This document shows, in pieces, positions 25,001 to 50,361 of a stretch of DNA of 64,000 bases; positions within the stretch are counted from its first letter, which is position 1, and each line of letters begins with the position of its first letter. The stretch is from Lingula anatina (taxonomy: Eukaryota > Animalia > Brachiopoda). The stretch lies in NCBI GenBank assembly GCA_051362555.1, contig CM120642.1:16182001-16246000 (forward strand), read 5' to 3'. Below the pieces are notes generated by a model, which made no database searches, was not told the DNA's origin, and saw only the letters and a list, made by a program, of their open reading frames with translations. Position numbers and translations under genes: made by a program.

Positions 25001-26294
25001 ATGTAAAATATATTTTAAGGGACACTGGCTTGCTAACGTGGACAAATGACTAAATGTTCATAAAGACTTGGATGATTATAGTAATTAAGAAGATATTGTA
25101 CAAAAGTTTAAAAAATATAGTGATTTATGCTAAGAAAAAGGATGATTATAGTAATTAAGAAGATATTGTACAAAAGTTTAAAAAATATATTGATTTATGC
25201 TAAGAAAAACTGTACATCATGTGCTTAAGTCTGCAAAAACAAATTACAACGGTGCAGTTAAAATACCATGATATTTACTACTAAGCTAATGTCTAACTTT
25301 CTGTATTCTGAATATATATGAGACTGAAATTTCTGTTGACAGACGAAGGTAGATATGAGTATAGGATAATGGTCTATTTTGAACTCAGATGTAGATGTTT
25401 TGTACATGTAGTTTTTCAAAATTTCATATTTCTTGTCAAATATTTTAATTGCTGTAAAAAGCAATGAATGGAGCTGAAGGAAAATCTGAAAAATCACTTG
25501 TTATTAAGCAAAGAGTAGTCCTTGTGTGAGGAAAAAAACCTCTTAACATCATCATAGAGGCAGGGAAGTCAATGTCAGATGATCATGGCACATGGCATAT
25601 CTTTGTGCTCAGGTGTGCTCTGCAGATAAGACATTGGCATGAAGAGATATGACTCAGTGTTCCCTGGTTTCTGTTGGTATAATATTGGATTGAGACCCAT
25701 TTCTTAACAAACTGAGCTGCATGTTGTAGAAAATCTCTTGTATAAAACAGAAGGGCATGATACAACTGTTGGTATCGTGCCATATTTGTAGGGAAAGTAC
25801 CCAGTCTCACTGTTGTGACAACTATCTTGTTTTAATTGTAACTTTCAAGAATATTTTAATATTTATTAAAATGCCAGAATGAGGTTAAGAGCAGTGTTTC
25901 ATGCATTATTTTGGCAGTGATTTAAACCCAAGCCCCCAAATTGCATCTCTCACTTCCTCTTTCTCTTTCAAACACAGTTACGCTGGGACACAAACAAGCA
26001 AGCATGTACTGTACTTGGGCACCCACACACACACATAAAATAATTTTATGTCGAATATATATTATTTCTTTTAAGTTTTTTAAATATTGTGTATACTAGT
26101 AAGTGATAAACTTGTATATTGTGTATACCTGATGTCTACAAAAGTAACATTGTATATCCTTGATATACCTGTACAGTACACTTTATGTACCTGATGTAGA
26201 AATACCTGAACAGTCATATTTCACCTGATTAGCTTGGCAATATTCTGGTATGTATGCAAATGTGTGTACTAGTATGCGTACATTCATGCATGTT

Positions 26295-26327
<33 letters not shown>

Positions 26328-26330
26328 GTA

Positions 26331-26374
<44 letters not shown>

Positions 26375-29118
26375 CAAAAATAAAGATATGGCAGTAATTT
26401 CAGAAACACAGTATCAGTTTAGGTAAAGTGGAATACTACGGCTTTGAATGTCTTGATTACATCATAAAACATTTGCATTTGGGATTTAGTGACAAAGTGT
26501 AAATATTATATGAGGGTGTCAAACTTGGTCCTGGAAAATTCCTCCAAAAATGTGGAGAACCTAATTAGGTACCTGTATATATATATAGCTCTATATATGT
26601 GTATAGGTACCTGTATAGTCATATATAGCTTTCTCTTGTCACAGTTTGATGTCAATTATGGTTGTGAAAGAGGAAAATTTTCAGGCTTGTTCAGCATTGG
26701 CCCAACATGAACCAAAAGTTTCTGAACAATCAACATAAAGGGATGAATAGATCATGTGTTTGTTAATATGTGGGTATTTACAAATAAAAGATAATGTGGG
26801 GTGGGGCCAAGACTTTAGCCTTTGATTTTCAGTGTCCGGATAGTCAGCTAAGTTCTGGGTTCATGGTGTAGATGGCAGAATCACTAAAACAGTTACCTTA
26901 TATATGATATTCAGCAATTAGTAACCGTCAGGTTATTTGTTTATTGCTATAATCTGCCATGCATGAGTAAACAGATTGAGATAAAGGTTTCCAGAAAACT
27001 GAAGTAAATATTATTGTGGGATGGAAATTAGTCCATATGCTTTTATTTATTTATGTGATTTCTTGCCATGTGATTGCATTGAGAAAAAAATTCCATGTAT
27101 TTTTGATGCACATCAGGTGCTCATGTTTTATTCAAAAAGCACTTTTCCCAGTTGCATTAGTAAGCAAAATTCAACGTAAATAAAACGTAAATATTTTGAA
27201 ATCATATTCCAGTAGGTTGCCATATGATTAAGAAACACTAGGGCTGTCATTGAACTTACACTGAAGCTTAATAGGAATTTTAAAAAAGAATGTGAAAGCA
27301 GGAACAGTGTAATTCTATATATACTAGATGTGGTTAAGAATGGCTACTAGAGTGACAATAGACCAGCAGGCTGGAACTTGAATAGGATCAATGAAGTATA
27401 CGGCAGCGTATTATGGTAACGCCAATCAGTTGTCACAGCAGCTATATTGTGACCCATATATGGCATAACTATATATATATATATCTTTGTATGTTAGACA
27501 AATATACCCAATCGTGGTCAGTACTAGTAAATTATATTGAATTGGGCGTGACCATAACATCCATTTAGGGACCATTTAATCATATACCTATGTGTATACT
27601 GTAGACATATGGTTTTGCATGTTATATCATTATTGAACAATTAGTGAACAATTTTGTGCATGATTTTCATACACTTGATAACCAGTGTATGATAATTCAC
27701 AGTGTATGATAATTGCTTATTTGGCATTAAAATGAGGTCATAGCGCTTGCTCTTTTACCAGTAAATATTTTTGGGAATTCATTTTAATTCCTCATCGGCT
27801 TTTTATTATTAGCTTGGATACTAGTAGGGGCTCAACAGTACTAAAAAATTCAATCGATTTGAAGGACAAAAATACCACCTGTTCTACTTTATGGAATCAT
27901 TCATTCAATTATTTGAATCTTTTTCTGAAATAAACAAGTGGCCCTGATTAGAAGATTGATTCATCTCTTTTTCCAAGAAAAAAGGTAAAACTGAATCCAT
28001 TTTTAAAACAGGATATAAGCATTAAATCTTCTCTGTATGAGGGGACTCAGACCTACATGTGCGTCATGGTTAAGTCTTGGGGCTGAATCACCTGTTTGAC
28101 AGGTATGTTATTACAACGTTTTTATTGACCTGCATAATTACACAGTTTAGTAAGAGTCACGAACTGTATTATGTGGCCTGTCATGATCTCCTGAGTGACT
28201 ACATGATTTAGGAGTTAACTGTCACTCACCCTGATAAGAACACACAAATATTGATGATGAATACTGCCCACCCCCCTCCAGTCATACTTGCATTCAGTCC
28301 AGAAAGTGACTTTTTTTTTCAAATGTTTGTAAGACAATAATGTGATTTAATAACATGAAGTTACTTAAAGTAAAGTTTGTATTTGATGTAATTGAACACA
28401 ATTAATATGAAATTTTGTAAACCGCACAAATGTAAAAGTTTATGATACCCTTTTTGAGCTTCAGATCTCAGGCTCATGTTGACCCTTAAAAGTGTGCCTA
28501 CATGAGAGGAAAAAATTAGATTAATTCATTATCCAATAAATCAGTCTGTGGAGATGATAAAAGGGCCCTTATTTTTAATCAAAAGATTAATGTTGTACCT
28601 GAGCAGGTGAATGTTGAATGGTTCACAAACTTAACCAGATATATAATAGGCTCGTTCAACAGATAAAATCACTGGTTTATTGGTTTAATCTGATGATTAG
28701 AGTTGGCCCCATTTACCTTATGATATATATCTGATATATTATAGTAAGGTCAGCTTATTTTTCAGCATGGCTGTAAAGTCATAAAGGGTAAAAATTGTTT
28801 TGTCCTGATAGGGTAAAACATGAATGTGTCTTTTACTGGTTGATGGCGCAATCTTTTTCAAACTCACGCATACACATATCTTAGTCATCTTTTCGAGATG
28901 TGTATGTACTAGTACACAAGCACCAGGCCCGTAGCCAGCAAGTTCAAAAGGGGGGTTCTTTTTCTGAAAAAATGGACCTTTTCCCATAAAAACTTCATGT
29001 ACCTAGATCAAATTTTACCCAGAGTGGACCTTTTTCCAGCAAAAGGGGCGGTTCTTTCGAACCCCCCGAACCCCCCCCTGGCTACGGGCCTGAGCACCCT
29101 GCATGTATGGGTGTGAGT

Positions 29119-29161
<43 letters not shown>

Positions 29162-32100
29162 TGCACGCACGCACGCATGCTGTATATCATGTATTGTTTA
29201 ATACATGTGCTCTGTTGATAAGTTCCAACTTCTTGAAAAAATTAGGTGATCAGTTATCACATATTCATGTACTAGTATGTGATGTGTTTAAAACATCAAA
29301 TGTGATCCCATTTTTGAAACTTAATCTGAGACTAGTATATATTCAACAAAGGTAGACATATTAGGTGCTGTGATGCAGTAAGGAATGTGTGGTTGAAGTA
29401 CAATGGCTGCATGTCTAAAATGTCATCTGTGTAGTGATATCCTGGTGGTAGGAATACGGTAATCACTTGATCTTTCAATGGGGGAAAACTGTGAATTTAG
29501 ATACTTTATTTTTTAAGTCATAATTTCTTAAAATTAGAAACTTTCTATTAAGTGGTAGTAACAAAATTCAAAAGCAGGCTTATCTGTATTTCCATCAGTA
29601 AAAGCACCTCAAGCTGCATAGAAAAATTTTTTTGTGATTATAAAATTATGTATCTGAAAATTTCATAATTTTTTTCCATTGAAAAGCTTGAGTAAATTGC
29701 TGTAAGTGTACCACTCAGAGTGGAGGTGTCATGTAGTGCTAGCAGGTGCTATGTCATCTACTCAACATTGATAGTAATCAGCTAAAAGCTTTTATCGCTG
29801 ACAAAACATCACTGCAGTGTGATTAAGTACCAGTACATGTTCATTATCTACACTATACCCTTTATGCTGCATATAATCTTAAAGACAAATATAAAATAAA
29901 ATATTTTTTTCTTCTTTTGAAGTGATTTATGAAGAGCAACTTATTCTCTGTATTACATTAATGACATAGGGTGGTTTGATGTAAGAAAATGAGGGGAGTT
30001 AGACATACATGTATCTGTTAGTGACCAATTACTTTTTTTTCGTAAAAATGCAACATGTTTACAAAAGCCTTGCCAGGAAACAAGTGTATAAATATGCCTT
30101 TTACTGCATATAAAACGTTTAAAAAGAAAAGTAGCAAATAAAAAGCTTCAACTTTTATGATAAAATTATGACATTGTGTAATTTCAGGTGAACCTGCCAA
30201 GTTTGATCCTACTTTCAATGGACCTATCAAGAACAGGTGGGTATATTTAACATTGATTTTGAATGATTTAACTTCCTGGAATGTTTTGAAAGATCAACTA
30301 AAATTGGCCATATATACATCCTGTTTACGTAGAATATAAATATTTGAAATGAAAAGATAAATCCTGAACATCTTTGTTCAAATATGTGTTTTGGGTTAAA
30401 TATTTATATTTAGCAGTCTTCTGTTTTAATTTTGATAATTTTGTCAATTTTTTTGGAAAGAAAGGTAATTCAATTAACCAGCTAAAATAATAAGTTGATG
30501 CTCAATTAACCATCGTATTAAACATAAATTCATCACTTATAAATATAATTTGAAATAAATAGTTGTACATAGTCTTTAGCAAAAAGCCTAAAGTTTTATC
30601 TCTGTCAATGCCTGAATATTGCTGTTGTTTTCCAGGGGCTGCACAGATGTAATATGCTGCATCCTTTTTATCATATTTTTCCTGGGAATGGGCGTGGTGG
30701 GCTACTGGGGTGAGTACCAAGAGTGACCTGAATTCCTAGCAGAATTTTTTTAGAATTAAGGGTAGAATATTGTAGTGGCAGAGATGTATTGAAGAAGTGA
30801 AATAATATATTAGATTGTATTATTCATGATAAAGCCTAACAGCATACATGTGGATTGGAACTGGCTTTTTAACACTTGCGGGTAGGTCAAAGGAGGGTAT
30901 GTATGATATTATATAATATATAATAATAATATGTAGTAGTACAGGATATGATATATATATAATAATAAATGTATTTTATAAGATGTATGCAGCATAAATG
31001 AAGATGAAATATTATATTTGTTATTTATAAATTGAAAAAAAAAGCAACTTGTCTTTTAAGTAATATTTTTCTGTTAATTTGATATTGATAAGCATTGCCA
31101 AGAGATGGCAGTTGTTAATCTTATATAATTCAAAGATTTGCGACATGGATAAGAGACCTGTACATTACCAGTGTCTTTTCTAAAATAATCAATAGTTCAT
31201 TTGAGACTGTGATAAATCATGCTGCTTCCATGTCTCCAGTTCCATAAATAATTGTTCAGTATTTGTTTCCTGGGGTTCTTGTGCTCTAGAACACAGCTGT
31301 AACATGTGACAGTTGTGTGTGACACATGTCTCATTAAAAAAGCATTGCTCAGATATGCTTTATATAAATCACTGTGTGCCATCTGCAGACTCTTTTGTAT
31401 GATAAATTATTTGATTTGTATGTTCATTTGCAATGAGACACTGCACTGTAAACGTTCTTGGTAAGAATTGCATGTGAACAAATCAGTTTCTTATCAAACG
31501 TGCACAGGCCTGGCTTGTGGTCGGTATAACTATGGAACTGGTCCACAGGCAAACTAATATATCTGTTATGTGATGGCCATTGTTTTTGTAAAAACAGAAA
31601 AAAAAAACTTTTTGTCTCTGACACCTTTTCTCATACAGCAGTTGTTTCTGAAAATTTGGCTATTTGTCCCCCATCAAAATTACCCCCCTAATAATAATAA
31701 ATAATATTAATAATAGTAATGCAAAAGTTCACTCAGTTTCTTGACATGCATACATTATACGTAACAGTTCAAACCAGATAAAATGATAGTGATCGAATGA
31801 TAATGTTTTAAATTATATGAAACATAATGAAATCATTCTGTTTACTTGTATGGACATGAAATACTTGATTGATAACTAAAAGCTTTCACTCTATTGGACA
31901 TGTCACCATAGCAATTGACTAAGTGTTGCTATGGAGATATAAAGATGCCTCTAGATTTGCATCATGCTCTGTATTATTGGACAAATATAGTCTGTCATGT
32001 ATGGATACCATTCCTCCCAAACAGTTACAACGTTTAACCAGGGGACATTGACAGCAATCCAAAACCATATAACAAAAAAATTGTTTTTAGTGTCACATAA

Positions 32101-32263
32101 CCCAGTATCAAGGTGTCAACCTCTTCACATAATATTCAACCTAGTCACGCAACCCACTTGATCTGCTTAGGGTTTTATTCATCCAGTTTCACAGTTATGC
32201 CTGTCAAGATAGATAATTGTTTTCACCTCCCTTGTTCATAGCTTAGTGTGCCACATTGAACAC

Positions 32264-32296
<33 letters not shown>

Positions 32297-34321
32297 TGTT
32301 TTCTGCACTTTTGCCCTAAAAAATTAATTTTCCTTGCCCAGCGACCCCCCCCCCCCCCCCCCCCCCCCCATCAGACCTTTGTTAATAGCTCTAGATCTGC
32401 AGGTCAGAATATAATTGAGAGAATTTCCTGCAGTACAGTAGTACCAGGTAGTGCTTATTAGAAGCCAATTTATGTAGCAGTGGTATTAATAAAATTTGTT
32501 GAATTAAAAAAACAAAACAAAATGCAATTAACATGTCTGTTTTAACTTTTTGGGTGTGCATGTCAGTTATCTCAATTCATTGTAGAGACATATTTAACTG
32601 CTTTGGCAAGGAATAAATGAGAGTTAATAGGTATATTATACACCACAAATTTAAAAGAAAGTTTTTTATGTATTTCTTGCAGGCTACAAAGAAGGGGATC
32701 CTACTGTCCTGATATACCCGTCTGACTCCGAGGGAAACCTGTGTGGTTATGGGAATTTTGTGTGAGTAAAATTCAGTGAAACCTTGGATGAAGGCGGAAA
32801 GGTTTATTTGATTTATTGATGATGTGATCAAGGGGTTAATAGTTCAGTTTTCATATTGTAAATGATGCCCATCTGTGTAAATAAATGTATTTATGAATCT
32901 GTATGAAGAATTTACAAAACAACACTGTACATCAAATTACGTAGGTCAGTGGGAGTCCTATTCAGATTATTTATGTATTGGTACAGCGCATATGATGTAT
33001 GAAGCTGATTTTTTAAAAAATCACTTTGAACATGTTTCCCACAATTTTCAGAAACAAGCCAAACCTGTTTTTCTTTGACTTGTTAAAGTGCACCAATGTT
33101 GCCCAGAATGTTGCTGTCGGGTGCCCTACCACACAGGTAAAGTAACCATTTGCTTTATATTCATTTGTTAATAAATTACTATTTATCTGTTCAGAATGTT
33201 TGTCTTTAGGGATAAAGTCAAATGTAATGTCAGCCCTGGAAGCAGATAAAAACTCGCAGAAAAAAATAGTTTCTTTGTGCCATTGAGACTGGCTCCTTGC
33301 CAAATGGCAGTTAAATTTTAACTGGACCTGTAATAATTTTAAATTATGTTCAGTTTATGGCCACAGTTTCTGCTTTAAACCACTAAATTCTTGGATATAA
33401 CCTGGTGTCCTAAAGGGCTTCAGCCTTTTGGGCACTGATTAGAGAAACAAATCAGTCACTTATGCAGTGATTTTGGCTGTCTTCAACCTTGGGATCTTTT
33501 TACATCAAGTGGTGATGATACTCTGTATCATTTCAGTAAATTTCTGTCAATAGCTATAGAAATTATTAATTGATATTTATCAGCCATTGTTTCATCTGCT
33601 GATAGTTATCCAACCTCTATCATCTGCTCCTTAGGGAGGGGGAGGGATGAAGAGGAGAAGGGGGCATCTGACTAGACAGCACACTTGAGTGGTGAAAGGT
33701 GAAAATACTTAGACCCCATTCCCAGAAATTAGATCGATCCAACTAGATCGACCTAACTCCCTGGGGGTTCATGCTAAATAGCTGTCAGCCGAGCGGGTAC
33801 GAAAGTTAACTACCCCCTTACAGCTTGTAGTAGGCGGGACGGACATTTAAGCTGGATTATCTGACAGTAATCTAATGAGACTCCCCAGGGGGATAGATCG
33901 ATCTAAAATCTATGGGAATGCGCCCTTACACTCATTTCCCTGATGAAGTCCGACTGTCACAGATGAAATATTGGCTGGAAAGATCAGTTTATTATTTTTA
34001 TAGCTATTGATAAATTTTGATTTAAGAAATTTTAAATTAAAAAAATTTAGTGGTCATTTCAAACACAAAGCTAATGAAACTGTCCAACATCTGTACTGTT
34101 TCACTTTGAAAGTTAATATAAGTCCAGCTATTACGTAAAAAAGCCACCTAGTGTAGCCCAGTGTTCAATCCGGCCAGTTAATGAACTTCTGCACAAACAG
34201 AGGGAAGCCAACTTGTGAAACCTGAAGTAGCTTAATTACATGTCTGAATCTTTCAGAATGTACTGTAATACACCCTAAATTGCAAAACTATACTGCGCAA
34301 AGTATAAAGTATTAATAATAG

Positions 34322-34383
<62 letters not shown>

Positions 34384-37300
34384 TCACGGCTGCACAACAG
34401 TTGAGTCAAATTTTTTGTTTTTGAGTATTGAATCTTTGTATTAATGTGTACATCTGCTGCTGATGTTGTGAACTTGACATTTTAACTGACAAATGATTCA
34501 AAGTACATGAAGTATTCATAATTGCAGCTTTTTTTCAGGTTGCCACATTTATTCCAGCATTTTGATAAAACTTGATTTCAACTATTCTAATATATAGGAA
34601 GACATTTAATCCGATTAATATGTAGTATAATTTGAGAATTTCTTTCAGGACTACACAGCAAATGCTTTAATTGGTATTTTGTATATTGAATGTGCAGCAA
34701 ATTTGTACTTAGGTCAATTGAATGATGTGATTGAACATTTTTTTTATTTATTCTAAATAATATATTGACCTGCAATATCTCCAATAGGTTTGTGTTGAAA
34801 AATGTCCAGATAAATACTGGGCATGGCTACCTGATTTCATCATTGAGACAACCACTGGAGTACGGACGCGGGGCAATCTGATCTGCGATTACACCACTCA
34901 AGCTATTCTTTCAACCACTACTCTTGTAAGCTGTAGACCACTGAGGATCGTGTGTTGATCCAATATTTTCTGGTGTGAACTAATTCCTTTGTAAACACTG
35001 AGGATCGTGTGTAGATCTACTCTGCTGTTGTATGAACTCATACCTCCATGAACACTGTTTGTAGGGTGTAGATCCATCGTGCTGTGGTGTGAACTAATCC
35101 TGTGACTTTGTTGTGCTGTGTGTAGTCTTGCTAACAGGTTGCTGTCAACATTATCAACTTTGCTACGTACAGAATGAAAATTGATAAAGATAATTTTTCA
35201 TTTTTTGACCATGTTTTTTTGCAAAAATGTTTTTATATGGTTAAAAAAATTGAATTATTGTTTGGCTACAAAAATCAATGTGCTCTGACAGCAAGTAGTG
35301 TTTTATCACTAGGTGTGATGATAAAGTTATGATAGACTTTATCATATTGTTTTCTAATGGCTGGAAATATTGTACAACTGGGATGTCATAGTACAACATT
35401 GTCATTATAATAACATAGTCATAGTAACATTTCCTCTGGTTGCATTGGTCTACTTGGCCCCTTTATGTTGCTTTTACAGTAGTTCAGTAGTAACAATTAA
35501 TGCAGCCCTTGAATGTGACTGGCTATACTAACCTGAGCTATCTTTTCTGTATTTCTAGATCTCTAGCATGTCACTGTATAAGAGTCATGAGTGTTGTGTA
35601 AGAGTTCCTGTTATTAAAGGTATGAGATGTGAGAGCGTCACAGAATGTTGTACATGTATTTATCATATCTCGGGCACAGTATGATGCCATCATGGGCTGT
35701 TGAGCTGCCATTGTGGCTGTTTTTGGATATTTGGAATGGTTTTGAAGTTTGACAGCTGATTTTATCGCGTTCCTGTATTCACTGTTAGAATGTGCCTTAT
35801 GTGTAATGTTGTCTGAATGTGATGAAAAAATGAACCTCAACAGTAGGACATGGAGAGTTTTCCTTCATACTTCATCAGGAGCTTATACATCTCTCAAAAC
35901 TAACTTTTTATGGACTCCATGCATCTCCCAACATGTTAGGAATTTTTTCACTCGGTGTCCACAAAACTGTGTTTTGTGGTATAAAGTTTTAAGCTTGCTT
36001 CTCAGTCCTAATGCCAATAAGAATGATGGTGATGGGTTGACTTTTGCTTTTAAAGGTCCTGTAGCAAAAATATATGGCTTGGTACAATGTAGGACCTGGT
36101 TCTGATCATATCTAGGCTTTTAGAATTTGTCTTTCATATTACTTCTCTATGACTTGTAATACTTGTGATGCACCGAAAAGCGTTCCATGTAGAGGTTCTG
36201 TATTCTGCGCTTGGTTCTTCAAGCTGATAAAACCTGGTGTTCAAGATACATTTATGCTTATCAAACAAAGGTTGCCTTCTTTGAGAGTACAGCTTTCTCT
36301 TGTAGTTATCAAGATGCTGTTCAATGTCATGGCTGTAAACTGTTTAAGGACTCTTCTTCCTCCTTTTCCATTTTCCAAGATGATCACAGTTTCAGGTACG
36401 TCTGCCAAAATGTATGTAAGTGGATAGTCAGAGTTTCCCCAGTTTTACTCAATCTGTTTATCATGATATTTTTCTTTGCCAATGCATTAAGGCATAGCTG
36501 TCATGTATACCAAAGAAGCATGCAGGGAACCCAGGCAATACACTTCTCAGTGTCCACGTACACCATGTCTCCACACCATTGAGATCATCTCTCCTTACAG
36601 ATCTGTGTCAGTTCTTGCCCTACCACTTACTGGACATGGGTTCCCAGCTATCTCCAGGAGCTGGCCTCTCTTACTGGTGCCAAGTACAGGGATGGTATGA
36701 TCTGTGACTACGCCACACAGGATATCCTACTTACTACCACCAAAGTACGATCTCAGAGAAGATGAGGATCATCCAACAATGATTATAGTGTACATGTGTA
36801 GCTTCTGTGCATAGCTTAGTTTTCCTAGGTGCAAACATCTTCAGAATCTGTGCTTTTTGCCATTGAGCTTTTTTTAGCCTTGTTTTAAAGATATTGGACA
36901 GTGAGTATATATGAAGAACTATTGCATAAGCTTACTGTTTGTTGGCTGTGAACTGCTTTCTTTGTACGTATACAATTTGACATAAGGTTAGACCCATATG
37001 AAGTGGGTCTAAGACAAGGAATTCACAAATGATAAACTAATGACACTGAATGCGTTAGCTCTCTTTATTTTTGCGGCTTGACTCCTATAGTTCAATGCAT
37101 TGATAAATTTTCTGTGCTTTGACTAATCTCTTAGGCTACTGGAATTATATCTCATATCGATGACCTAAATTGCCTGTTCTGGTGATTACTGATTTGTTTT
37201 CTTCTCAATCTTGACAATTGTTGCTGACTGCCATAGCAATTAACTGGTTACAATGTACCACATTGGAATTATCTCATGCTTTATCCTTTGCTATGGCAAC

Positions 37301-40300
37301 ACCATCTGGTGGAAATGTTATTGATGGTGACTGATAAATGCCATGAAGTGAATTTTCATATGGATGAGCTTGGTTTGGATTCTCAAGTGTTTTGATTGAA
37401 AAGCTTACTATATATATATATATAAACCTGAATGTCAGGGCTTTTCCCTGGAATGGGGGTACAGGTTGTCCCAAATTGCCACCTGTGGTTTCCTACAAAT
37501 TTTCAGGGAGTCCAAGTATGCCTAAAGCCGTCATGTTTCCAAAAAAAATCCATAGGCCATCAAGCTGTTTTTGAAAATATATGTCATACAGTGCTGCTGG
37601 CAGCCATCCAAATGACATTAGATAGTCACCTGGGAAAACCCTTGCTGAATGTCAATTTTCTCAAAAATAACATCTGATTGCAGCATATGCTGTCACGTGA
37701 CGCTGCTGTTGTTGTCTGATCCATGTCTCTTTTTCTCTGGTTGGTCCTAAAATTGGCAATTGTGTCATCAATATCTTATATGGTGATTGCATTATCAGCC
37801 AATTTTATATTTTATTGAGCCTCAGATAGCAGGATGTTAGATCATAATTTTTGCTAATTATATAATAAATCACTACCATTTATTTCATCCTTCCTTTGTG
37901 TCCTTTTTTTCCATACATTTTTATTTCAGAAACTTTACTACTAGAATATAACTTCTGCCCATTTATATGTATATATCACCTGCTCTCTGATAGATCAATA
38001 ATAGCACTGTTATTTATGACCTTTTACTTTTTTCTCATTTTTCCAGATGATTCTGTGTGCAGTGATACTTTGTGTGTCATTTTGTCACTTTATTTGTAAG
38101 CAGGTTTTATAGTTAAAATACTTACACTTTGAACCTGAAACACAAAAAGAATGATTTGGTATTCAATATGATTTTTTTTTAAAGGAGATGACAGAATGAA
38201 AAATTCAGTTATGGAGAATAAGCTAAAGAAAGGTCAAAAGAGAACTCTCATCAATCATGATTACAAGATCCTTGAGGGTAGTTGAGTGAAAGTTATAAAT
38301 ATAAAACCTGCTACTCGGTGTGTCTTTCTTGAAAACTAATCACTTCATTTTCCAAAACAATCTTCAGACACAAAAATGGCCAACAGAGATGCCCTCAATC
38401 CCACAGTTTGGCATCAGTCTAATATATTTCAAGTAAAAATTTAAGAAAATACAGAACTCTGTTAGTCAGACAATAAGACTCAATTTTAGGTGTGCGTGTC
38501 AAAATGTCCTGACAAGAATTGGGTGTGGGTGGCTGCTGCTGCGCAGGATGCTAACCCCTTGCTCAGTACCGAGGAAAGGAGAAAGTTAAAAGAGGACATG
38601 TATTGTACTTATAATATAACCACGCAAGTTAGAGATGAAAAGGTAAATTGAGGAGGGATGGGGAGGGGGCTGGGAAGGGAGAGCAATGGCAGTAAATGGA
38701 GCAAACTGGAATATGGACTTTTAATTAAAATTATCAAACATGGATAGTGATGGGATGTAGTAATGGCCTATCTGTCTAAGGGAGCATTCACATCGAGAAG
38801 AGCCAAGGTTTAGTAAGGCCGTGACCTAAGTATGTTGGACCAACATGAAAGGAAGACCGCTTATCTTTTGATGGTCTCTCCGCTTCTGACACCCCCCCCC
38901 CCACGCGTTGTTCCTCGAATGGTTGAATTGAGCTGAGATTTAATTACTTCCTTTCATGTAGGTCTGCATATCTAGGTCACGGCCTTACTAAACCTGGAGA
39001 AACTGAAGCTGTAGTTGATTTGATTTCTTATATTGTTGCTTATTGGCTTGCTAGTAGGAAAAAGGTATTTCTGTGTGCTTGCATGAAAACTGTAAGTTGT
39101 ACTTAGTGTTTGTTTTTGCATAATTTTATTTCATTTGATCCTTTTTATTTTCAAAACTTTTTGTTAATTCTGCACAGCAAATTGTTGTGTTACTAATTTT
39201 GAAAATAAACTTCATAGTAAAAACTAAAAAAACCAAATAGCTCTTTTATTTCAAATATTTTATTGTATCAATTTTAACATATAGTAAAAACTGAATAACT
39301 TTTAGATAACATATCGACTTGTTGATAAAAAAAATGTAATTTGTGAAGGAAAAACTTAGTTTTGGAGATAATGATGTGTATGTGTTGTTTTATTTTAATA
39401 AGTTTACTCAGGCAGCAGTTAGTTTTAATTTGGCATTGTCGTAAAAGAAAACTTGCTGCTTTTAAGTAAATTTTGAATTAAGATTTATTACACAAAGAAA
39501 AAAAATTGAAATATTTTCAATGAATTTTGTTTTATATAACATGCTAGCTTGCTTTAATTTTGTTCCACTAGTTGCATGCATATTTATTTTTCTCCATTCA
39601 GTCAATTAAAGAGCTAGTGGAAGGAGGCAACTGTGCTTCCTATTATGTCAAGAGCGATGCAGGTATGAGCTTGAATGTCTTAAGTTTTTATTGCAAGATT
39701 TTTATGAAATATGTCAGTATCTTTTCATTTTGTTATCACTTTTATAATGTCTTTAAAAAATGTGTTATTCAAGGTTTTTTTTTTTTTTTTTTTGATGATT
39801 TGCAAGTTACATTAGACATTGTGTTTTGTTTTTTTTTTCAAAGTGTTTTCAGTTAACTTATAACATTGCACAATATTGATGTATGTCACCACTGTTTTAT
39901 CATTTTTTAGACAATTCTACGCTTGTAACAAAGATGCACCTTTTCTTGCATTCACATTGCACTGATTGAGACACAACATCAATTTTTGTTCCAGTTGTTG
40001 GCAGGTGCGTTCCCTCGGCTATTTCTACTCTCATAAACTCTGCCTCTGGTCTCTTGTCTGATGCTGGCAACACCACCCTGGTGGCAGCCGATAACACTAC
40101 TGTCACAGGTGATGCACTTAGTGCAGCCTCCAAGTAAGTTCTCAGTTCGTCTCTTATTGTGCAAAGATTGTAGACACAAGCGTAAGCTCTTTGCCTTGTA
40201 AGCATGTTATGTATTTGTAAATGTGCACAGTTTTGTAATTATGAGGTGAAAGTTGAATTATATCACTGTTGCTAATTTGTTGCCTGTCTTGTAAATATTA

Positions 40301-43300
40301 TGGACACTTCTTGAGCAGAAGAACAATTTCCAAATCATGAAGAAACTAGCTTTAATATGGTTCTAAATTCATAGTTTTGTAATTATAATTAACTCATATG
40401 TTGTATTTTCATTCAACAGAGTACTGGCTTACATCCTGAATGCTAAAGAGTATGGTGAGAAGATCTTGGCTGATGTCAGAGCCTCCTGGTGGATGATTTT
40501 GGTGTAAGTTTTCATAGCTAACATAATAAGTTCTGAACTTTAACACATTTTATCCCATTACATCTTTTAGGGATTTTGTGTCAGTTTACAAAATGTTACA
40601 ACTTGTTATGATGCATGCAATATTTAAGACTCGGAATTTATCACATATACTTTTTTCTGTGTGCAAATGTGAAAATCTGTATATATGTTTCGTTACCCAA
40701 TATCAAATGACATCTTGTTAAAATGGATGAAATTTTTATCCCCTTTTGTGTCACTGCACAGTGGTCTACTTAAACAGATGTAAAGGGTACCAAACAATAC
40801 ATGTGTCTGTAATTTTATTTTGTTTTCAGTGGCCTTGGCATTTCATGTGTAATTGCCTTCATTTGGATTATCATCATGAGATGGATAGCTGGAGTCATTG
40901 TCTGGTTCACCATATTTGCCTTCATTGCTCTATTCTCCTTCTGTGAGTATAATGAAATTTGAACATTTGAATTGCTTCCCATTGATTAGGAAAGAATGCC
41001 TAGTGAAGTTCTGGTTAATTCTTATTTTACAACTAAGCCATTCAGTGGATTTTTAGGTAATTTTTTTGTGTATCATTTTTGAAATATTTTTTTATATTGA
41101 AAAAAGGAAAGAACAAATTTCTTGCGGATGTGGCATTATCTTATGTAATAATTTGAATAGATTAGAATATAGATACTAAACAGTTGCTGCTTTCCATATT
41201 GAATAATGTTTATTCTTTTAAAAAAATGAGAAAAACTTCTGATCACCAGCTAGTATTAAATCAAAATCTGGAATTTTTCTCCACCAGCCACATACTACAC
41301 ACTCAGCAGGTACTTTGAGATGAAGAACAACTCGTCTGCCAGTCTAAACAGTGTCACGGACATAGAGTTCACCACAAATTTGGACTACTACTGGAACCTC
41401 AGCACCACCTGGCTGGTCTTTGGTGAGTGGGGTTTGTGTAGTAGCTGCTAGTGTATTCTCAGTTGTTTGTTTATTGCTGCTGACTCATGTTGCTGTATTT
41501 GTATATGTGGATGGTTTATGTGATTTATGTCATTACATACTTGAATATGTGTGGTTGGGGGTGGAAAGTCTATGGGTTTGATTCCTTTAAGTGTATTTCA
41601 ATTTAATTTAGATTAGGAATTTAATATAAATTTAATTTTATTTTAACTCTGGCATTAAAATTTCAACTTAGTCTCTGAGGTGGAATTTGCAATATTCATT
41701 GGATTTAAAATATAATTAAATTATACATGTATAATAAAGAAAGCATAATTGATGTCTGTTGGTCATAAAATTCCAGATAAAATGCTGCAGTCTATTAAAC
41801 CTTTACTTCTTTTCTATAACCTAATCCAAACAAAATAATTAAATTGCTTCTCGTGCCATTAATGAAATTTGATATTCTTCTCATCCTCTGCAGGCATTAT
41901 CTCTGCCACCATCCTTGGCCTGTCCATCCTCATCCTCCTCTTCCTCAGGAACAGAATCCGCATCGCCATTGCTCTCATCAAGGAAGCCAGCAGGTAAAAA
42001 TTAAAGCCAGAGCAAGGTTTTATTTAGAATCTATCACTTATGATGTTCAACAAATTTGGTTGAATTTGGCCAGCAAAAATTAAACTCTCAAACTCTCAAA
42101 CATACCTGGGAAATTTAAATGCTGCTATTATGAGGCCTTATACCTCATACTTAGAGCTGTTGAATTTACAATCTTTTCAAAGATCCACCAAGAAATATAG
42201 TTTTCCTCAAAAATCGACATTGAATTTTATGTTTGTAATGAAATTTATATATGTACCTAAGTGAGCTGTGCAGAAAGTAGTAGGGGCCATGGCACAGTGT
42301 CAGTTGTAAGCTTAATATTATAGCAACACAAACCATAGGAGAGGGATACTTTCACTCCCTTAGAGTAAGCCCCAATTTGTTAAGCTATGGTGAGCTTGAT
42401 CTATAAGAAAAACTACTGAGCTGGGTCTTAATGAGTGATATCAACCTATCTTGGTTTGAAAGGAGGCATGAGCATCATAAGAAAACATTTTTCTCTACAT
42501 CGCTTCATTTTTACATTTTATCCAGAGCTGTGGGCAACATGATGTTCACCCTACTGTGGCCCATCATCCCATTCTTCCTCCAAGTGGTCCTGTTTGGATT
42601 CTGGGGTGCAACTGCCCTCTACCTGGCCTCGTCAGACAAGAAGAAGTATGCTAGCTCCTCTGGGAACCTGACCAGTAATGTGACGGCAGCAGATAGTTCC
42701 AATCTTGTCACAACGTTTGCAGCATCATGTGCTGTGAGTATCAAGAAGTCTAACAAAATTATCAGCAATATATATTGCCTTATTTAGCCTGAGTTTCAAG
42801 GTGTGCTACAGACACGCCCCTTTATCTGTGCTATAACTTGGTTTCATATACAAACCGATTGTATAAAAGTGTGATGTATACTTATATGTAAAGATAATGG
42901 TAATAATGTGAAAATATCTTCAGCTGTATCAGTTACTGAGTTACTATAAGAATTTCTTCTAACATTTTAGCAGCTAAGATTAGATAGAAAATATTGGAGA
43001 CCAATACATTTGAATTTTCTGCCTGTAATTGAAGAAACTATCATTGCTACAAAAGTATTAAAATGGCTTATTGAAAGTCTATGTTATATTTGTAATACAT
43101 TAACCATGATTTCTTTTCAGGCGGATTATACCAACAGTACCCTGGGCCAGTTCTGTGGATTTGTGGGCTATGATGTCCAGGAGTAAGTCTGACAGTTCCC
43201 TAATAAGCATGTATCACCATAACTTAGGCTGCATGCAGTACAACAGACTTACTAGTCTGTGGGCCAAATATGGCGGCCGACTGAAAATCTTGCCACCTAA

Positions 43301-46282
43301 TCCGCTAATAAGCACTGAAAAGATTCTTCATGGGGAAGAATGCTTCAAAACTGAATTAGTAGTTCGAAATCTTGTGAGAAATGCTATGCTTACATATCAT
43401 TAATTTGGCATTTCAGGCATTCACCACACTTGAATATAGATATATATTATATATTAAACTGCCCATGTATGAAATAATTTCAAAATTTGGTGAAGCCAAA
43501 GATCTTTAAACTTATATATTTCAGCTGTAAGTCTTCATAAAGGAATTCAAATGTTTTTATCACTTTGCATATGTATTTTAATACATTAAAATGGTAACTA
43601 TGGATACAAAGGAGTTTTATTTATTCCTGTATCCATTGTTTTTTTATTATTATTATTCCAGGTACACCATATACTTACAATTCTACATGTTATTCATGCT
43701 GTTCTGGGTGATGAACTTCATCATTGCTCTTGGACAGCTGACCCTGGCAGGGGCCTTTGCCTCCTACTACTGGGCCTTCTCCAAGCCCCAGGATATCCCT
43801 GCCTTTCCTGTCACGGCTTCTTTATGGAGATCTTTAAGGTAAAAATAGCTCAATATTTTTGGCTGGGCCAGGGTTTTCTGAAAGTGGTGGGGTTGACATT
43901 GATTTTTTTTTTCAAAGTTCAAATAAAAATAAAGTGAATGGAGTGTATGGAGATATTGTTTGGGTTCTATCCTAAATTTGCTTGTAACAGTATGTTTTTT
44001 CTTAAAATATTGGATAATATTTTTCTCTGTGTTATGTTTTTCTTCCTCCTTTGAATCTCTCAATGAAGAAACTGTTTTGAAAGCTTCAGAATTGTGTGTG
44101 AGGATTCAAAAAGAATTTTGCACATGTGCAAGCTTATTGTTGTTTATTCTCTTATTACTTTGATGACAAATCCAAAGTAAATATCAAATTCTTTTGTATT
44201 TTCAGATATCACTTGGGTTCAATAGCCTTTGGTTCTCTGATCATTGCCATCATTCAGATTATACGGGTGATACTAGAGTACGTAGATAACAAGCTAAAAG
44301 GCTCTGAGAACCAAGTGGCCAAATTCTTCCTCAAGTAAGTCATTTGTAACTTAATGTTTAATCAGAATCTTACTTACATGTTTAATTATATAAGTCAATA
44401 ATAATCAAACTGACTTTTCTGGAAGCCAGGTTTGCTACGATGGGGTCTGACATCTTTTCATTAGAAAGCTTTCCTTTGTGATCTGTTTTATTTTGTGATT
44501 TCATTTTGACTGTTTCCTGCTTGAATGATTCCATTTCAATTTACAGCTTTGAACTTTTTACCTTTGTACTGTTGTCAGTCTGGCAGCTGACTGCAGATTA
44601 TGTAAAATATAGTAATTTAAAAATCAATGAATAAATTTGTCATGAAGTTAATAAAGATATCTTGGTTCTACATTTCTTTCCTGCATTAAGGTATGCATGG
44701 TGTTCCTTAATTCTAATTGTCAGTACTAACAATTGAAATAACTTGAAGCCTGTACTTCAATGTATTAAACTTGATCATCATTAATACAGTCATATATTAA
44801 TTTTACAGGTGCCTGAAATGCTGTTTCTGGTGCTTGGAGAAGTTTATGAAGTTCCTCAACAAAAATGCTTACATTCTGGTAAGTTTCTATAGAATATCAC
44901 AGTATTAAGGTTCACTTCCCTAAGATTTAAAGTGAGAAGTAGAAGGCAATTTTGCATATGAAAAACTACATGATCTATGTTATCAAATATAAAAAAAACA
45001 ATAATTAAAAAGTAATGATGTAAAACATACTTTGATTATTATTAAAAAACACAAAAAAATCTTAAAAAAAAGATAACTTCTGAATCAGCAGGTAAGGAGA
45101 AAAGTTTTGCTTTCTAAAAAAGTAGTTATCAGAAATTTAGTCTTCATTAAGCTAGATCAGAAATTATTCTTAATTTCACTTTCATAATTTTCATTGGCAT
45201 ACTTCTTTTTTAACCTTACATATTGACTTTCAGATTGCAGTTTATGGAAAGAATTTCTGCACATCTGCGAAAAATGCTTTCTTCCTTATAATGAGGAACA
45301 TAGTGCGGTAGGGGAATGGATTTTTTAGATTGGATAATATCTACATAAAGGAATCTGTTAATAACTTTTTGAGACATGTATAGTCTTATGCTTATTTTTG
45401 TAAGTATGTGTCTTATGCTTATTTTTGTAAGTATGTGATAGCCTCTAAATTTTTACCTTTTCAGAAAGATCTAAAAAGTATGAAAAGGTGCTGAAATTCA
45501 GAAAAAATTCTAAAAAGTATTGCTTTTTATCTTTTGCTTCAGGGTTGTTGTCATAGACAAAGTCGCCGATTTCTTGCTGCTTATTGCAAAGTTGGTGGTC
45601 GTTGCAGCAACAAGTAAGTAACCAAGATATATTGTATTATCTTTTTAACAATTGCTGAAGATGATTTTTTTATCCTGAAAGTAAATTAATTAAAAATTGT
45701 GATCTGTTTGAAATAAAGGTTTTGGTTTAAAGTGCATTTAGTATAATTAACTGTATGATACTCCAGGTTAAAGTAATAATACAGTAATCAGCTGCAAATG
45801 ATGCAGTGGATTTTGATTTTCTCAGGTTGTAAAGAATGTAAGAAATGACAGAGTTTATTGGACTTATAAATGTATAATGAATTCAAAATTATGGGCTGCA
45901 GTGAAATATTCATCGTAGCTGTCAATTTCAGATGCAAGACAAGATGCCACATGCTTTTAATTATTGCTATCATGCAACATGGGCCCTGCAGAATGGCAGT
46001 TTAGGATTTTACTTATATATTTATAATTTATATTATTACAACAAGCATATTTTATTTAAATGCTTTCTGAATGCTTCATTGTGCATTTCTATATTGTATA
46101 TATAAATCAAATACAGAATTCAAAGTGAATTGAAGAAAAAAAATAAAATTATTTCTCTTCCAGATGTAGTTGAAAGATGAAAATCTGTGAATTAGTTGTA
46201 TTGTTTAAAATAATATCTTGCCATTTCCCCTTTCAGATATTTGCTGTATTATAAACTGAAAAGCAACATATTTATCCCCCCC

Positions 46283-46319
<37 letters not shown>

Positions 46320-49300
46320 AGAGAGAGAGGGAAATAAAAAAATTAATTTTATTGACTAATTTTCATTATCTTTTTTTGTCTTTTTGTCTGCCAGCCATTC
46401 TGGCATTCTTCTTCTTCAGTGGACAGGTCCCTATCCAAGTCATCAACGGTTATGTTCCCTCACTACACTACTACTTGATCCCCGTGATGGTATGTACCAA
46501 GTATTGCTGACAGACACCTGACCTCACGCCGTCATTACAAATGCATACTAATCCTCACCTCGTTGGCCTGTTCTGATTGAGCTTTTTGTACAGGAATGAG
46601 AAGTATCCATTGATTGCATATTGAATAAATCTTGCCCAGTTTTAACTTTCAATTAAAATTGATTTATTTTGGAATTGACCCTGGGATATTGGAATAATCA
46701 GCAGATCCATGATCTTTCCTGTTTATTTTTTCGCATCAAAAGTCATATTTGGTTGGTCCCTGCATCCCTATACCCTGGCAAAATTTCTCAGTATTTATGT
46801 AACTTTTATTTGGTTTAAATGCCATTTTCATAAAATGGGCCGTTCCTCCTGCATTTCCTAAGCCATATTCTGAACAGTTTCTGTCACCATAATTCTCATC
46901 CCTGTAAATTTTATAGTGTGAGACAAGACTGGAAAGTGCATTATAATATAAGAACATATACTTGATGCTTGACTGTTCTTTATAAATGGTAATGATTCGA
47001 TCTTTTGAATGGGCAAAAATTATCAAACATTCATGTACATGATTGTATAAGTGCAAAATTATATTTCCATAAAGCATTTTGGCACTTTTACTGCATAGAA
47101 TAGAACTACAGAGTAACATGCTTTTTAATGTTGTTATTACCACTTGATAGGAATGTTCTAATTTTAAGAAATTATGCCTTAAATATACTGTATCTTTAAA
47201 ATTCACAATTCTCCCCCCATTGAAAGGATCGAGTTATTACCTTATATCTGATATATATGTGGCATGCTGCATGAAGCCAGTGTAATAAGTCATTGCCAGC
47301 AATGCATGTGGTACACAAAGATGAGGTGAATTGCATGAGTCCAGAAATGGAAAATATAAAAATCTTTTTTTTTTCTTTTTTTGCATCCACTAACATCAGC
47401 TTGTAAAGATATTTAATTTCTTTGCAAAATTTGTTTTGTACAGATTGAAAAAGTTATTAGATTTTAATTTTTTTTTTTTTTTTTTGGTAATATGTGAAGC
47501 TATGAAATTGGAATACGCATATTTTTAATATAAAGGGGTTATTCTGAGCACAATTAGAGTAAGTAATAAAGGAAATCAAAATAATGACATGTATTGAGGT
47601 TGCATGGATTGTAATTATTGATACTGCATAAATGCAGCATGCACATCATACTTAACTAACATCTTTCCATGATACTAACATTTATTTCAGCATATTTAGA
47701 ATCAGAAGAAAAAAAGAATTCTGAACAATTGAAACTTTCAGGTTTTACTATTACACTTTGTCTACAATGAAGATGGATCTTTATACTGTGTGGTTTTATT
47801 ATGCAGGGAAAGATTTACATGACATCAGTACTTGGCTTTCATTGTACCTTGTACAATTTGAATTTAATTCAAATTTCCATCCTTTTCTGTCCAAATTTTT
47901 TTCTTCATTGGCATAAATTTTCTGTGATTTCAGAATCACACAGATCATATTGCAGCTAAATTATCTTATCATTAAGACAGAACAAATTTTCTGTATATGT
48001 GGTATAATTAAGCCACTTAAAATTTCTTAAAGGCATTACACTGGAAGCTTGAGTATGCAACGAACATGTCTGTCTTTTCTGTTTGATGCTATGCTTTTAC
48101 AGGACAGTTCATACTGAGGTTAGAAGCTGCTTTTAGAACACTACACAATAAGATTGAAACTGTGCCAACTTTTATGTGCAGTTGTTATAGATAAATAGGC
48201 TCACTGAGTTTCAGAGTTCTATACAGCTTTTGCTTTGATAGATTTCTATTTTAGGTTTTTGCAGTTCTGTGAATATCTCTGTATCTGTTTCTTATATACA
48301 AATAAAAGAAAATGGTACTTTTTTTTACTTTGGACACTGTCGAACTCTTTTGGTGTCGCAAATCTTTTTGGTTCCACTTTGTGTAATAACAGGGCATATG
48401 TTGTCTGTGGAGGTGTAACACTGCAAGCATGTGAACTGTAGAAGTTCAGGGTTGCCCACAGTTTAGTTCTGTTAATTTGTTTTTCATAATTATTAGTTAT
48501 CAATATCGATTATGAACTATAGAATGACACTGCAAAACAATTGAAACTGATATCCCCCCACACCCTGTCTCATAAAAAAAGAACAAGAAAGAAAAAAGGA
48601 ATTAAAAAATCGAGAAAAGTTACAGTTAGAAAATGCATTCATGAATATTGTTGGCAGCCCAAGAACTGTACACTTTATGTGAACTATGTTGCATGAACAG
48701 TCACACCCTGCAAGAAAGAATAATCATCCTGTTACAGTATTATAGTTTCTTCAATCAACAGCCAAAATCAGAATTATTACCTGTAGCTGTTGTATGAATG
48801 AGCTGTCTAGTAAGTAGCAGTGGATGAAGTTCATAATTTACACCTGCTTTTACCATTAAACTGCATTGAGAATGATACATTGTATCAGTGTATATTGTAC
48901 GGAGAATGATACATTGTATCAGTGTACATTGTAGGGAGAATGATACATTGTATCAGTGTACATTGTATGGAGAATGATACATTGCACTAGTGGACAATGT
49001 ATTGACAATGATGATTCACATTTCCTTTCCTGTGTTACCAGCTGCCGGAGCTTACTTCTTCTTTGATGGGCGCATCTCTTTCCTCAGCAACTACACTCCC
49101 TCCCTGAACTATTACCTAGTCCCCGTCATCGTGAGTAATCGTGCATCATGTGATCACACACACATTATTGTAACAAAGAATGTCCCGATAGTGAAACTGA
49201 ATTGTCTTGTTTATTACTAACTTTTTGGTGTTTGTGTCTGGTCTTCATTTTTTAATTCACTTTTATTATTTCACAAAGATTGAGGTTTTGCTCTTAAAGT

Positions 49301-50361
49301 AGATTGTTTTGTGTTTTATTTTCATAGTTCTGTGTCCAAAATTTACTTCATACTAACATTTATCTGTAATATTTTGTTGCATTGTGGTATGTTGTCAAAT
49401 TATTGTCCATATTTTTGTCAAACTCATTTAATAATTTTTTATTTTTGTTGGTAAAATGTGTATGTCTACTGATTTTTGAAATCTAACAAATATTTGTTAC
49501 ATGTTTTAAGTTACTGTATTAGCATTTTTTTTTCAAAAAGTAGTTTTTGTGGCCTTTTTAACACAAAAATGTCAGAAACACTTGATTCATGTGAACAGAT
49601 CAGTTTCATAGTTCTCCATTCATAATCTTCACAAGATACCAAAGTCAATTCACAAAGTATGCCAACAAGCATTCATACATCAAAACAATGTCAATCCACA
49701 ACATTTGTTTATCAAAACCAATGTGCCAACAAAAACATACACAGCACACCAAAATGCACAATATGTCACACAATATGCCATTAAGAAGTTAATGTGTTCT
49801 CAGTATAATCAACAAATTAATGAAGATAATACAACACACATGACCAAAAAACAAACTGCAACAAATCATGAAACAAGAGCACCATAAAAATTTAACAAAT
49901 CAGTAGAAACAAGATTGGCGAAGAGTCTTCAAGAACCCAGTACAACACTGTAGGTGTTCTGTTTCAGATCATATCCCTGGGGTCCTATGTGATAGCAGCA
50001 GCTTTCTTCAGTGTATATGGCATGGGTGTGGACACTCTGTTCCTTTGTTTCTGTAAGTATATGTGCATCAACCTTGGGGATATGGTAAGCTTTAAAACTT
50101 CTGTTAATGATGAGCTTACTCTTGTTTTGTACATATATTATCATTAAAATGACTATTGATTGGCTGATTCATCAGGAAAGTTTCTCTTGCTGGAAAAATA
50201 AGCTGTTTGACAAAATGTTTTTCCTTCCAGTGGAGGACTGTGAACGCCATGATGGCTCAGCAGAAAAGCCTTACTACATGAACAAGGATCTCATGGGTAT
50301 TCTGGGGAAGAAAAACAAATTGGAAAGTACAGAGGGTGACAAGAAGGGAAAGAAGGGATAA
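22012..50361 (+). CDS. Choline transporter-like protein (SLC44A2/SLC44A4 family). Exons 22012-22081, 30188-30236, 30636-30709, 32683-32761, 33052-33136, [6a/6b/6c], 39602-39662, 39995-40133, 40420-40503, 40830-40942, 41288-41422, 41894-41993, 42526-42733, 43121-43182, 43662-43838, 44206-44334, 44809-44878, 45234-45307, 45543-45613, [20a/20b], 49968-50052, 50231-50361
   Basis: All exons are AG/GT bounded and phase-compatible. Family motifs include [123 protein letters not shown] and [20 protein letters not shown]. Confidence 0.95.
22680..22895. mobile_element. Harbinger/Tourist-like MITE
   Basis: TIR GAC..CATTCCC.AGA.TTTAGATCGATC with 3-bp TTT flanks. Confidence 0.8.
23384..23507. mobile_element. 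Small MITE (TIR TACCCTCTACCAGGG family)
   Basis: CTCTACCAGGG...CCCTGGTAGAG. Confidence 0.6.
24088..24124 (+). CDS. Candidate alternative first coding exon of the SLC44 gene ([13 protein letters not shown])
   Basis: AAAATGA start, then 12 codons plus G and a strong AG|GTAAGC donor. Phase 1 matches the exon at 30188. Confidence 0.55.
25070..25209. repeat. Tandem duplication of about 70 bp
   Basis: GATGATTATAGTAATTAAGAAG...GCTAAGAAAAA occurs twice. Confidence 0.9.
28924..29092. mobile_element. MITE with CAGG termini and 5-bp TSD (AGCAC)
   Basis: Perfect 15-bp TIR CAGGCCCGTAGCCAG. A related degenerate copy lies at about 21611-21768. Confidence 0.8.
33712..33925. mobile_element. Harbinger/Tourist-like MITE
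   Basis: Same family, TTA TSD. A degenerate copy also lies at about 17394-17580. Confidence 0.8.
34788..34925 (+). CDS. SLC44 alternative exon 6a ([46 protein letters not shown])
   Basis: TAG acceptor, GTAAG donor, 138 nt, phase 0/0, open frame. Confidence 0.9.
36601..36744 (+). CDS. SLC44 alternative exon 6b ([48 protein letters not shown])
   Basis: CAG acceptor, GTACG donor, 144 nt, phase 0/0, paralogous to 6a. Confidence 0.85.
37436..37647. mobile_element. MITE with CAG termini and 5-bp TSD (AATGT)
   Basis: CAGGGCTTTTCCC...GGGAAAACCCTTGCTG flanked by AATGT. Confidence 0.65.
38490..38642 (+). CDS. SLC44 alternative exon 6c ([51 protein letters not shown])
   Basis: TTTTAG acceptor, AAG|GTAAAT donor, 153 nt, phase 0/0, same Cys/Trp pattern as 6a and 6b. 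Confidence 0.85.
38803..38997. mobile_element. MITE or foldback with about 30-bp TIR
   Basis: AGGTTTAGTAAGGCCGTGACCTA ... TAGGTCACGGCCTTACTAAACCT. Confidence 0.7.
46395..46489 (+). CDS. SLC44 alternative exon 20a ([32 protein letters not shown])
   Basis: CAG acceptor, GTATG donor, 95 nt, phase 1/0. Confidence 0.9.
48868..48995. repeat. About four copies of a 33-34-bp minisatellite upstream of exon 20b
   Basis: Unit GAGAATGATACATTGTATCAGTGTA(C/T)ATTGTA. Confidence 0.9.
49042..49130 (+). CDS. SLC44 alternative exon 20b ([30 protein letters not shown])
   Basis: CAG acceptor, GTGAG donor, 89 nt, phase 1/0, paralogous to 20a. Confidence 0.9.

Follow-up and report, generated by a model that had tools for sequence, protein, structure and literature searches.

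Three alternative copies of an outer-domain exon in an SLC44 gene of the brachiopod Lingula anatina, probably used one per protein

Results

Gene structure and family identity

We analyzed a 64,000-nucleotide (nt) stretch of the Lingula anatina genome (assembly GCA_051362555.1, contig CM120642.1, positions 16,182,001 to 16,246,000; referred to as the window), which contains an SLC44 family gene with three tandem copies of exon 6, named 6a, 6b and 6c (Table 1). The gene is the Lingula anatina "choline transporter-like protein 2", and a sequence search with exon 6c retrieved only the Lingula cluster (4 candidates). Six RefSeq isoforms, which we take to be automatic models, each contain exactly one exon-6 copy (6/6). 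A 22-exon transcript model built from the window reproduced isoforms X1, X2, X3, X4 and X6 except for three residues, located in 6b (two) and 6c (one); exon 6a was identical to that of isoform X4. Isoform X5 has a different first exon.

The preliminary description of the locus had called the product an SLC44 transporter. Family membership stood: the protein contains a PF04515 domain (369.8 bits, cut-off 26.9), and its model matches the choline transporter-like (CTL) membrane fold of CTL1 and PNS1 (Z 33.5 and 33.7; Foldseek E 1e-15 to 4e-12). The word "transporter" is less secure, being disputed for CTL proteins in the available text of PMC13160678 and of a preprint (bioRxiv 10.64898/2026.10.02.755950). 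In the family tree, in which vertebrate rows were labelled by resemblance, the Lingula protein fell into a lophotrochozoan clade (99); six vertebrate-like rows formed a separate clade (100). Because of this grouping, "A2" is likely a similarity label and not a sign of one-to-one orthology, and the gene is likely co-orthologous to the vertebrate A2/A4/A5 group.

Table 1. Coordinates of the SLC44 gene and its alternative exons in the window
Feature	Position	Strand	Length	Remarks
SLC44 (CTL2/4/5-type) coding span	22012..50361	+	742-747 amino acids (aa)	22 exon positions
First coding exon	22012..22081	+		RefSeq X1-X4, X6
Alternative first coding exon	24088..24124	+		RefSeq X5
Exon 5	33052..33136	+		Constant, 5' of the exon-6 cluster, ends CPTTQ
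Exon 6a	34788..34925	+	138 nt, 46 aa	Alternative outer-domain cassette, RefSeq X4
Exon 6b	36601..36744	+	144 nt, 48 aa	Alternative cassette, RefSeq X3
TGAGGATC	36763..36770	+		Candidate shared splicing element, 19 nt after 6b donor
Exon 6c	38490..38642	+	153 nt, 51 aa	Main cassette, RefSeq X1, X2, X5, X6
Exon 7	39602..39662	+		Constant, with invariant Cys181 and E177 (aligns to human SLC44A2 residue 154)
Exon 20A	46395..46489	+	95 nt	Alternative last outer loop and parts of flanking helices, RefSeq X1, X3, X4, X5
Exon 20B	49042..49130	+	89 nt	Paralogue of 20A, RefSeq X2

Three paralogous copies of exon 6

Frames, splice sites and the 22-exon model bore out the preliminary description of three intact phase-0/0 exons following CPTTQ. 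All three are open, have AG and GT at their borders, like every junction of the model, and are located between exons 5 and 7. Their proposed paralogy was also upheld. Pairwise identities are 23/46 (6a-6b), 16/46 (6a-6c) and 16/48 (6b-6c), and the alignment score of each pair was reached by 0 of 2000 shuffles. A single family profile, one of 20 exon profiles built from 129 relatives of the Lingula protein, matched exactly these three sites in the window (E 1e-12 to 7e-11; next match 0.089), and no fourth or degenerate copy was found there with it. Among the 20 profiles run, only those of exon 6 (three matches) and exon 20 (two) revealed duplication in the window. As had been noted from the sequence, an N-glycosylation sequon (NIT) is present only in 6c. 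Third codon positions are identical between copies in only 9-16 of 43-46 codons, which is near saturation; the copies are therefore old and have been kept open. Directly 3' of the 6a donor, three imperfect 57-nt tandem repeats are located (34939..35109, plus strand), two of which contain TGAGGA.

RNA evidence for exon use

Reads from four of nine listed RNA runs (runs X1, X3, X4 and X7) were aligned to positions 30170-43600, with 6-25% of each run and few reads in total; the exon joints below are those in 15 of 27 joint rows. The joint of exon 5 to 6c was supported by 15 reads in three runs (4, 0, 1 and 10 in runs X1, X3, X4 and X7), 6b to exon 7 by 7 reads in two runs (0, 0, 3 and 4), and 6c to exon 7 by 15 reads in two runs (0, 2, 0 and 13). 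No 6a-6b, 6b-6c or exon 5-exon 7 joint was among these rows. Constitutive tandem inclusion of 6a-6c is ruled out, as the 5-6c joint bypasses 6a and 6b, and the 6b-7 joint bypasses 6c. Joints of both 6b and 6c were found; the use of only one exon, with the others unconserved, had been named at the outset as the other refuting outcome. The proposed mutually exclusive use agrees with the one copy per isoform and with the 6b and 6c joints in RNA. The junctions suggested for checking were found on both sides of 6c and on the downstream side of 6b, but not for 6a.

In run X7, 6a had a read depth of 2.4 per bin, compared with 0-0.9 in most intron bins; one bin with a repeat reached 2.6. Converted from bins, exon depths in this run were 7.9 (6a), 12.2 (6b) and 20.5 (6c). 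Their sum of 40.6 is similar to the flanking depth (29.1 for exon 4, 42.9 for exon 5 and approximately 32 for exon 7) and fits the use of one of three. Run X4 was tilted to 6b and run X1 to 6c, each with only 3-4 reads from tissues that were not given. Membership of a mutually exclusive cluster is firmly supported for 6b and 6c, and for 6a it is probable. Run X7 carries the same species label and shows many fixed exonic differences from the window, including a three-base change at 39629-39631; it possibly represents a divergent population or a cryptic species.

Position and variability of the swapped segment

The cassette corresponds to residues 120-170 of the Lingula protein. Its cysteines C121, C125 and C158 are invariant in 129/129 aligned proteins, and three further invariant cysteines are encoded by constant exons. 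The core between the cysteines has a conservation of 0.21, the lowest of 11 regions measured, and the spacing between the second and the third cysteine ranges from 15 to 44 residues among relatives, single-copy genes included. No Pfam family matches the cassettes.

AlphaFold2 models were made of the 6a and 6c isoforms, a comparison that the preliminary description had suggested. In both, the cassette belongs to the outer domain, follows helix 1 and precedes helix 2, and forms strand-helix-loop, with predicted local distance difference test scores of 92-96 in ten-residue blocks across it. The models thus agree with the assignment to the first, Cys-rich extracellular domain, and 6a and 6c are predicted with high confidence to take the same place in the fold. 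Disulfide pairing and surface exposure of the cassette are presumed. An atlas search with the outer domain gave no named look-alike outside SLC44. Structure searches used whole models, so that the outer domain was barely probed, and a solved structure that includes the swapped segment was not found; this domain is unbuilt or absent in the CTL1 and PNS1 entries, and a 2026 preprint that resolves the CTL1 outer domain calls the fold of this domain unique to CTL1.

The human sequence confirmed that SLC44A2 has a single such segment. According to the available text of PMC7253179, its first loop binds activated integrin and carries R154Q, in line with the earlier statement that this ectodomain engages ligands. 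The same statement has this ectodomain carry the HNA-3 alloantigen, which holds for the loop but does not extend to the cassette: human residue 154, four before the cysteine matching C181, aligns to E177, seven residues past the cassette end in constant exon 7.

Recurrence of exon-6 copies in other animals

We surveyed 337 fetched proteins, 258 of which matched the exon-6 profile, and compared 15 isoform sets. Tandem exon-6 copies were present in 3 of the 258 proteins: Capitella teleta (four copies), Dimorphilus gyrociliatus (two) and an older Branchiostoma floridae model (two). RefSeq isoforms of B. floridae use both of its copies as alternatives, and so do those of B. belcheri, B. lanceolatum and two hybrids. 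The joining of copies in gene models may therefore be a prediction artefact, and the copies of Capitella and Dimorphilus are likely mutually exclusive. Exon 6 is swapped in 6 of the 15 isoform sets. The 9 sets without a swap come from two species of nemerteans, a bryozoan, oysters, abalones and a sea urchin, and no swap was seen in Dreissena either; these negatives concern annotation, not genomes. Further alternative exons are exon 19 in Branchiostoma and exon 3 (first helix) in Tubulanus, and the Capitella gene model has two last exons.

In a tree of the exon-6 segment (42 rows, 48 columns), the copies clustered mostly by lineage: 6a with 6b (98/98), the six Branchiostoma copies (98/99) and the Dimorphilus pair (93/77). 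A constraint uniting the three Lingula copies was not rejected (p 0.47). Pairings of a Lingula copy with an amphioxus type, none of which involved 6c, were rejected in two of three tests (p 0.036 and 0.006). Independent duplication in Lingula, amphioxus and annelids is the likelier reading; old gene conversion may be another source of the lineage grouping.

A second exclusive pair at exon 20

The preliminary description included neither the recurrence in other phyla nor a second pair of alternative exons, 20A and 20B. RefSeq isoform X6 contains both; the resulting frameshift leads to a stop at 49105, with two junctions further downstream. Such double inclusion is likely policed by nonsense-mediated decay. 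The pair is outside the read coverage, and its use rests on the RefSeq models. This site is swapped in 4 of the 15 isoform sets (Lingula, Tubulanus, Lineus with three variants, and Watersipora). By eye, 20A looks like the annelid forms, and 20B like those of molluscs and nemerteans; for this reason, the exon-20 pair may predate the exon-6 copies. Together, exons 6 and 20 would provide 3 × 2 = 6 outer-surface combinations.

Possible control of exon choice

Exon 6 can be included twice, three times or not at all without loss of the frame (790, 841 and 696 aa, respectively), and therefore nonsense-mediated decay is ruled out as a guard. A steric block with a distant branch point is unlikely, because long introns (1675 and 1745 nt) separate the copies and only short AG-free zones precede 6b (19 nt) and 6c (14 nt). 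Minor-spliceosome incompatibility was rejected as well, since the donors do not fit the U12 consensus. In a duplex scan of this one genome for a docking site, none of three layouts exceeded shuffled sequence (19, 12 and 4 of 20 shuffles were as strong). The list of inverted repeats in the window contained only microsatellite, transposon-like and AT-rich pairs and no docking-site candidate.

As none of these four mechanisms seems to fit, we infer that splicing proteins may determine which copy is used, by way of weak donors and a purine-rich motif common to the three sites. The octamer TGAGGATC downstream of 6b is also located 17 nt after the 6a donor, and the hexamer TGAGGA occurs 7 nt after the 6c donor (38649). 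On the plus strand of the window, TGAGGA occurs 16 times; all four occurrences between exons 5 and 7 follow exon-6 donors, at offsets of +17, +74, +19 and +7.

Other features of the window

Intron 5 harbors a short inverted-repeat element (33700-33930), probably a widespread miniature transposon, to which hundreds of RNA reads matched partly in all four runs. Another hairpin element, with arms of 29 nt, is located at 38806-38995. Three neighboring genes are on the minus strand: a single-exon Toll-like receptor of approximately 900 aa with leucine-rich repeats and a TIR domain (57097-59847), a nuclear receptor gene (1819-6390), whose long N-terminal exon has a C4 zinc finger at its end and which further along shows a weak match to a ligand-binding domain, and a tRNA-Thr(TGT) (1288-1363).

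Discussion

It is reasonably probable, in our view, that the three exon-6 copies are swapped one per protein on a fixed scaffold and thereby tune binding by the outer domain, with the mechanism, origin and retention proposed here. Each protein would keep a disulfide-fixed outer-domain scaffold and exchange its most variable surface, and this exchange would tune what the domain binds. The copies would have been born by duplication within lineages, an event repeated in amphioxus and annelids. They may have been retained because in different cells the outer surface serves more than one purpose, for example at a partner protein, a lipid head group or in glycan display. The recurrence in a brachiopod, amphioxus and two annelids suggests that the outer surface was repeatedly retuned for binding.

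Several points weigh against this explanation. The cassette excludes the sole mapped functional residue of the human protein, and no ligand is known for any invertebrate family member. Divergence between copies may reflect relaxed constraint, because the core is also variable among single-copy genes. In the copy tree, 18 of 39 branches are open, 6c is an unplaced long branch and the four Capitella copies are ungrouped; the third cross-phylum pairing was not rejected (p 0.063). The candidate splicing motif TGAGGA was picked post hoc, and some hexamer is common to 10 of 1771 donor triplets. Regarding the RNA data, rare double-inclusion or skipping joints may be among the 12 of 27 joint rows outside those considered. 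The 15 rows from four runs contained no 6a junction, and the depth of 6a was zero in three of the four runs, with reads in run X7 only. These 6a data, and the tandem repeat directly after its donor, would also be expected if only 6b and 6c were used and 6a were a decaying copy, its isoform being an annotation artefact or splicing noise. We regard this as quite improbable, given that 6a is identical in the window and in RefSeq isoform X4, retains all three cysteines, yields a confident AlphaFold2 model and has a depth in run X7 above that of most intron bins.

The low conservation of the core leads to another alternative, that of nearly neutral redundancy. A symmetric phase-0/0 exon would duplicate easily, any copy would complete the fold, and a tolerant loop would drift while the isoforms remain alike. 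Such redundancy would account for a core that is the least conserved region even in single-copy relatives, with its variable cysteine spacing, and for the duplication of other exons in the gene family (3, 19, 20 and 22). However, all three copies are open with intact splice sites despite the few third-position matches, both amphioxus copy types persist in three species, and only 2 of 20 tested exon positions of the Lingula gene are duplicated, both at the outer face. We thus consider redundancy unlikely. Between the window and RefSeq, 3 changes were found in 145 cassette residues and none in 726 others (Fisher p 0.0045). All three differences being in 6b and 6c is expected under relaxed constraint, and it would also be expected if the cassette served in recognition or escape and were under diversifying selection, driven by pathogens or self-recognition in a Dscam-like manner; the preliminary description had envisaged a Dscam-like, possibly pathogen-driven ectodomain. 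Recurrent duplication across lineages and the human first loop, an alloantigen and ligand site in the available text of PMC7253179, point in the same direction. In contrast, run X7 showed 11 residue changes in constant exons, two in 6c and none in 6b (38 exonic variants entered of 40 rows listed, two intronic ones being set aside; 352 further rows exist), and the amphioxus copy types were kept between species, without turnover. With this mixed evidence, the claim of pathogen-driven divergence is not supported; nor is the label "Dscam-like", as there are just three variants, six outer-surface combinations and no docking site found. We judge diversification of this kind very improbable.

Returning to swapping on a fixed scaffold, the isoforms presumably differ in binding. 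Since they differ in approximately 50 residues only, they offer a clean test of outer-domain binding. A broader possibility, which we hold to be doubtful, is that SLC44A2/4/5-type proteins are not plain transporters but surface recognition proteins, with exon 6 as a specificity cassette whose alternative copies evolved separately in brachiopods, annelids and amphioxus, plus a second swappable loop in Lingula. Different cells would then present different faces for binding ligands or lipids. If so, the natural isoform sets would be ready-made probes for outer-domain function. The interest of the locus lies in the duplication of exon 6 and of the second outer loop, each in three phyla, in a family of unsettled function. 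Duplicated outer-face exons mark surfaces that were varied by evolution on a kept scaffold, and two 2026 studies of CTL1, in their available text, point to the outer domain and to lipid binding.

The preliminary description regarded the arrangement as undescribed. No account of outer-domain exon swaps in SLC44 was found in the literature searched, a scope that did not include subscription papers and preprint supplements; the three exons themselves are already in the automatic RefSeq annotation. SLC44 is not mentioned in the review PMC3342872 nor in the main text of PMC9741552 and PMC9013439. The splicing mechanism is of a well-known kind, recurrent tandem exon duplication, which the available text of PMC3342872 describes for Dscam, tropomyosin and ion channels. 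As in these systems, the same exon was duplicated in separate lineages and is alternatively spliced. Unlike Dscam arrays with dozens of exons, there are 2-4 copies of exon 6, and no docking or selector pairing was found in Lingula; with three plus two copies, its gene is not a large array of the Dscam type.

The membrane fold of the Lingula model is shared with the structures of human CTL1/SLC44A1 and yeast PNS1 (7WWB, 9QU3 and 9F63), in which the outer domain is unbuilt or absent according to the available text of PMC13160678. The same text reports that choline transport is disputed for CTL1, CherI and PNS1 and that none was found for CTL1. As far as its available text goes, the preprint (bioRxiv 10.64898/2026.10.02.755950) likewise reports no choline transport by CTL1; it describes an outer domain that is stabilised by disulfides and has a pocket for phosphatidylserine, with a fold called unique to CTL1. 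The first outer loop of human SLC44A2/CTL2 is homologous to that of Lingula, Cys-rich and with the same cysteine spacing, and in mammals it is glycosylated (PMC4636594, available text). The human protein differs in having one copy of the segment, and its ligands have no known counterparts for the Lingula protein. Human SLC44A2 and SLC44A5 also contain tandem-duplicated, mutually exclusive homologous exons, at the N and C termini (available text of PMC4494069 and PMC8373072). The family and the substitution of homologous exons are thus the same, and alternative first exons exist in Lingula too. In contrast to the human events listed in these texts, which are terminal and cytoplasmic with none internal, the Lingula gene swaps exons in the first outer domain and in the last outer loop.

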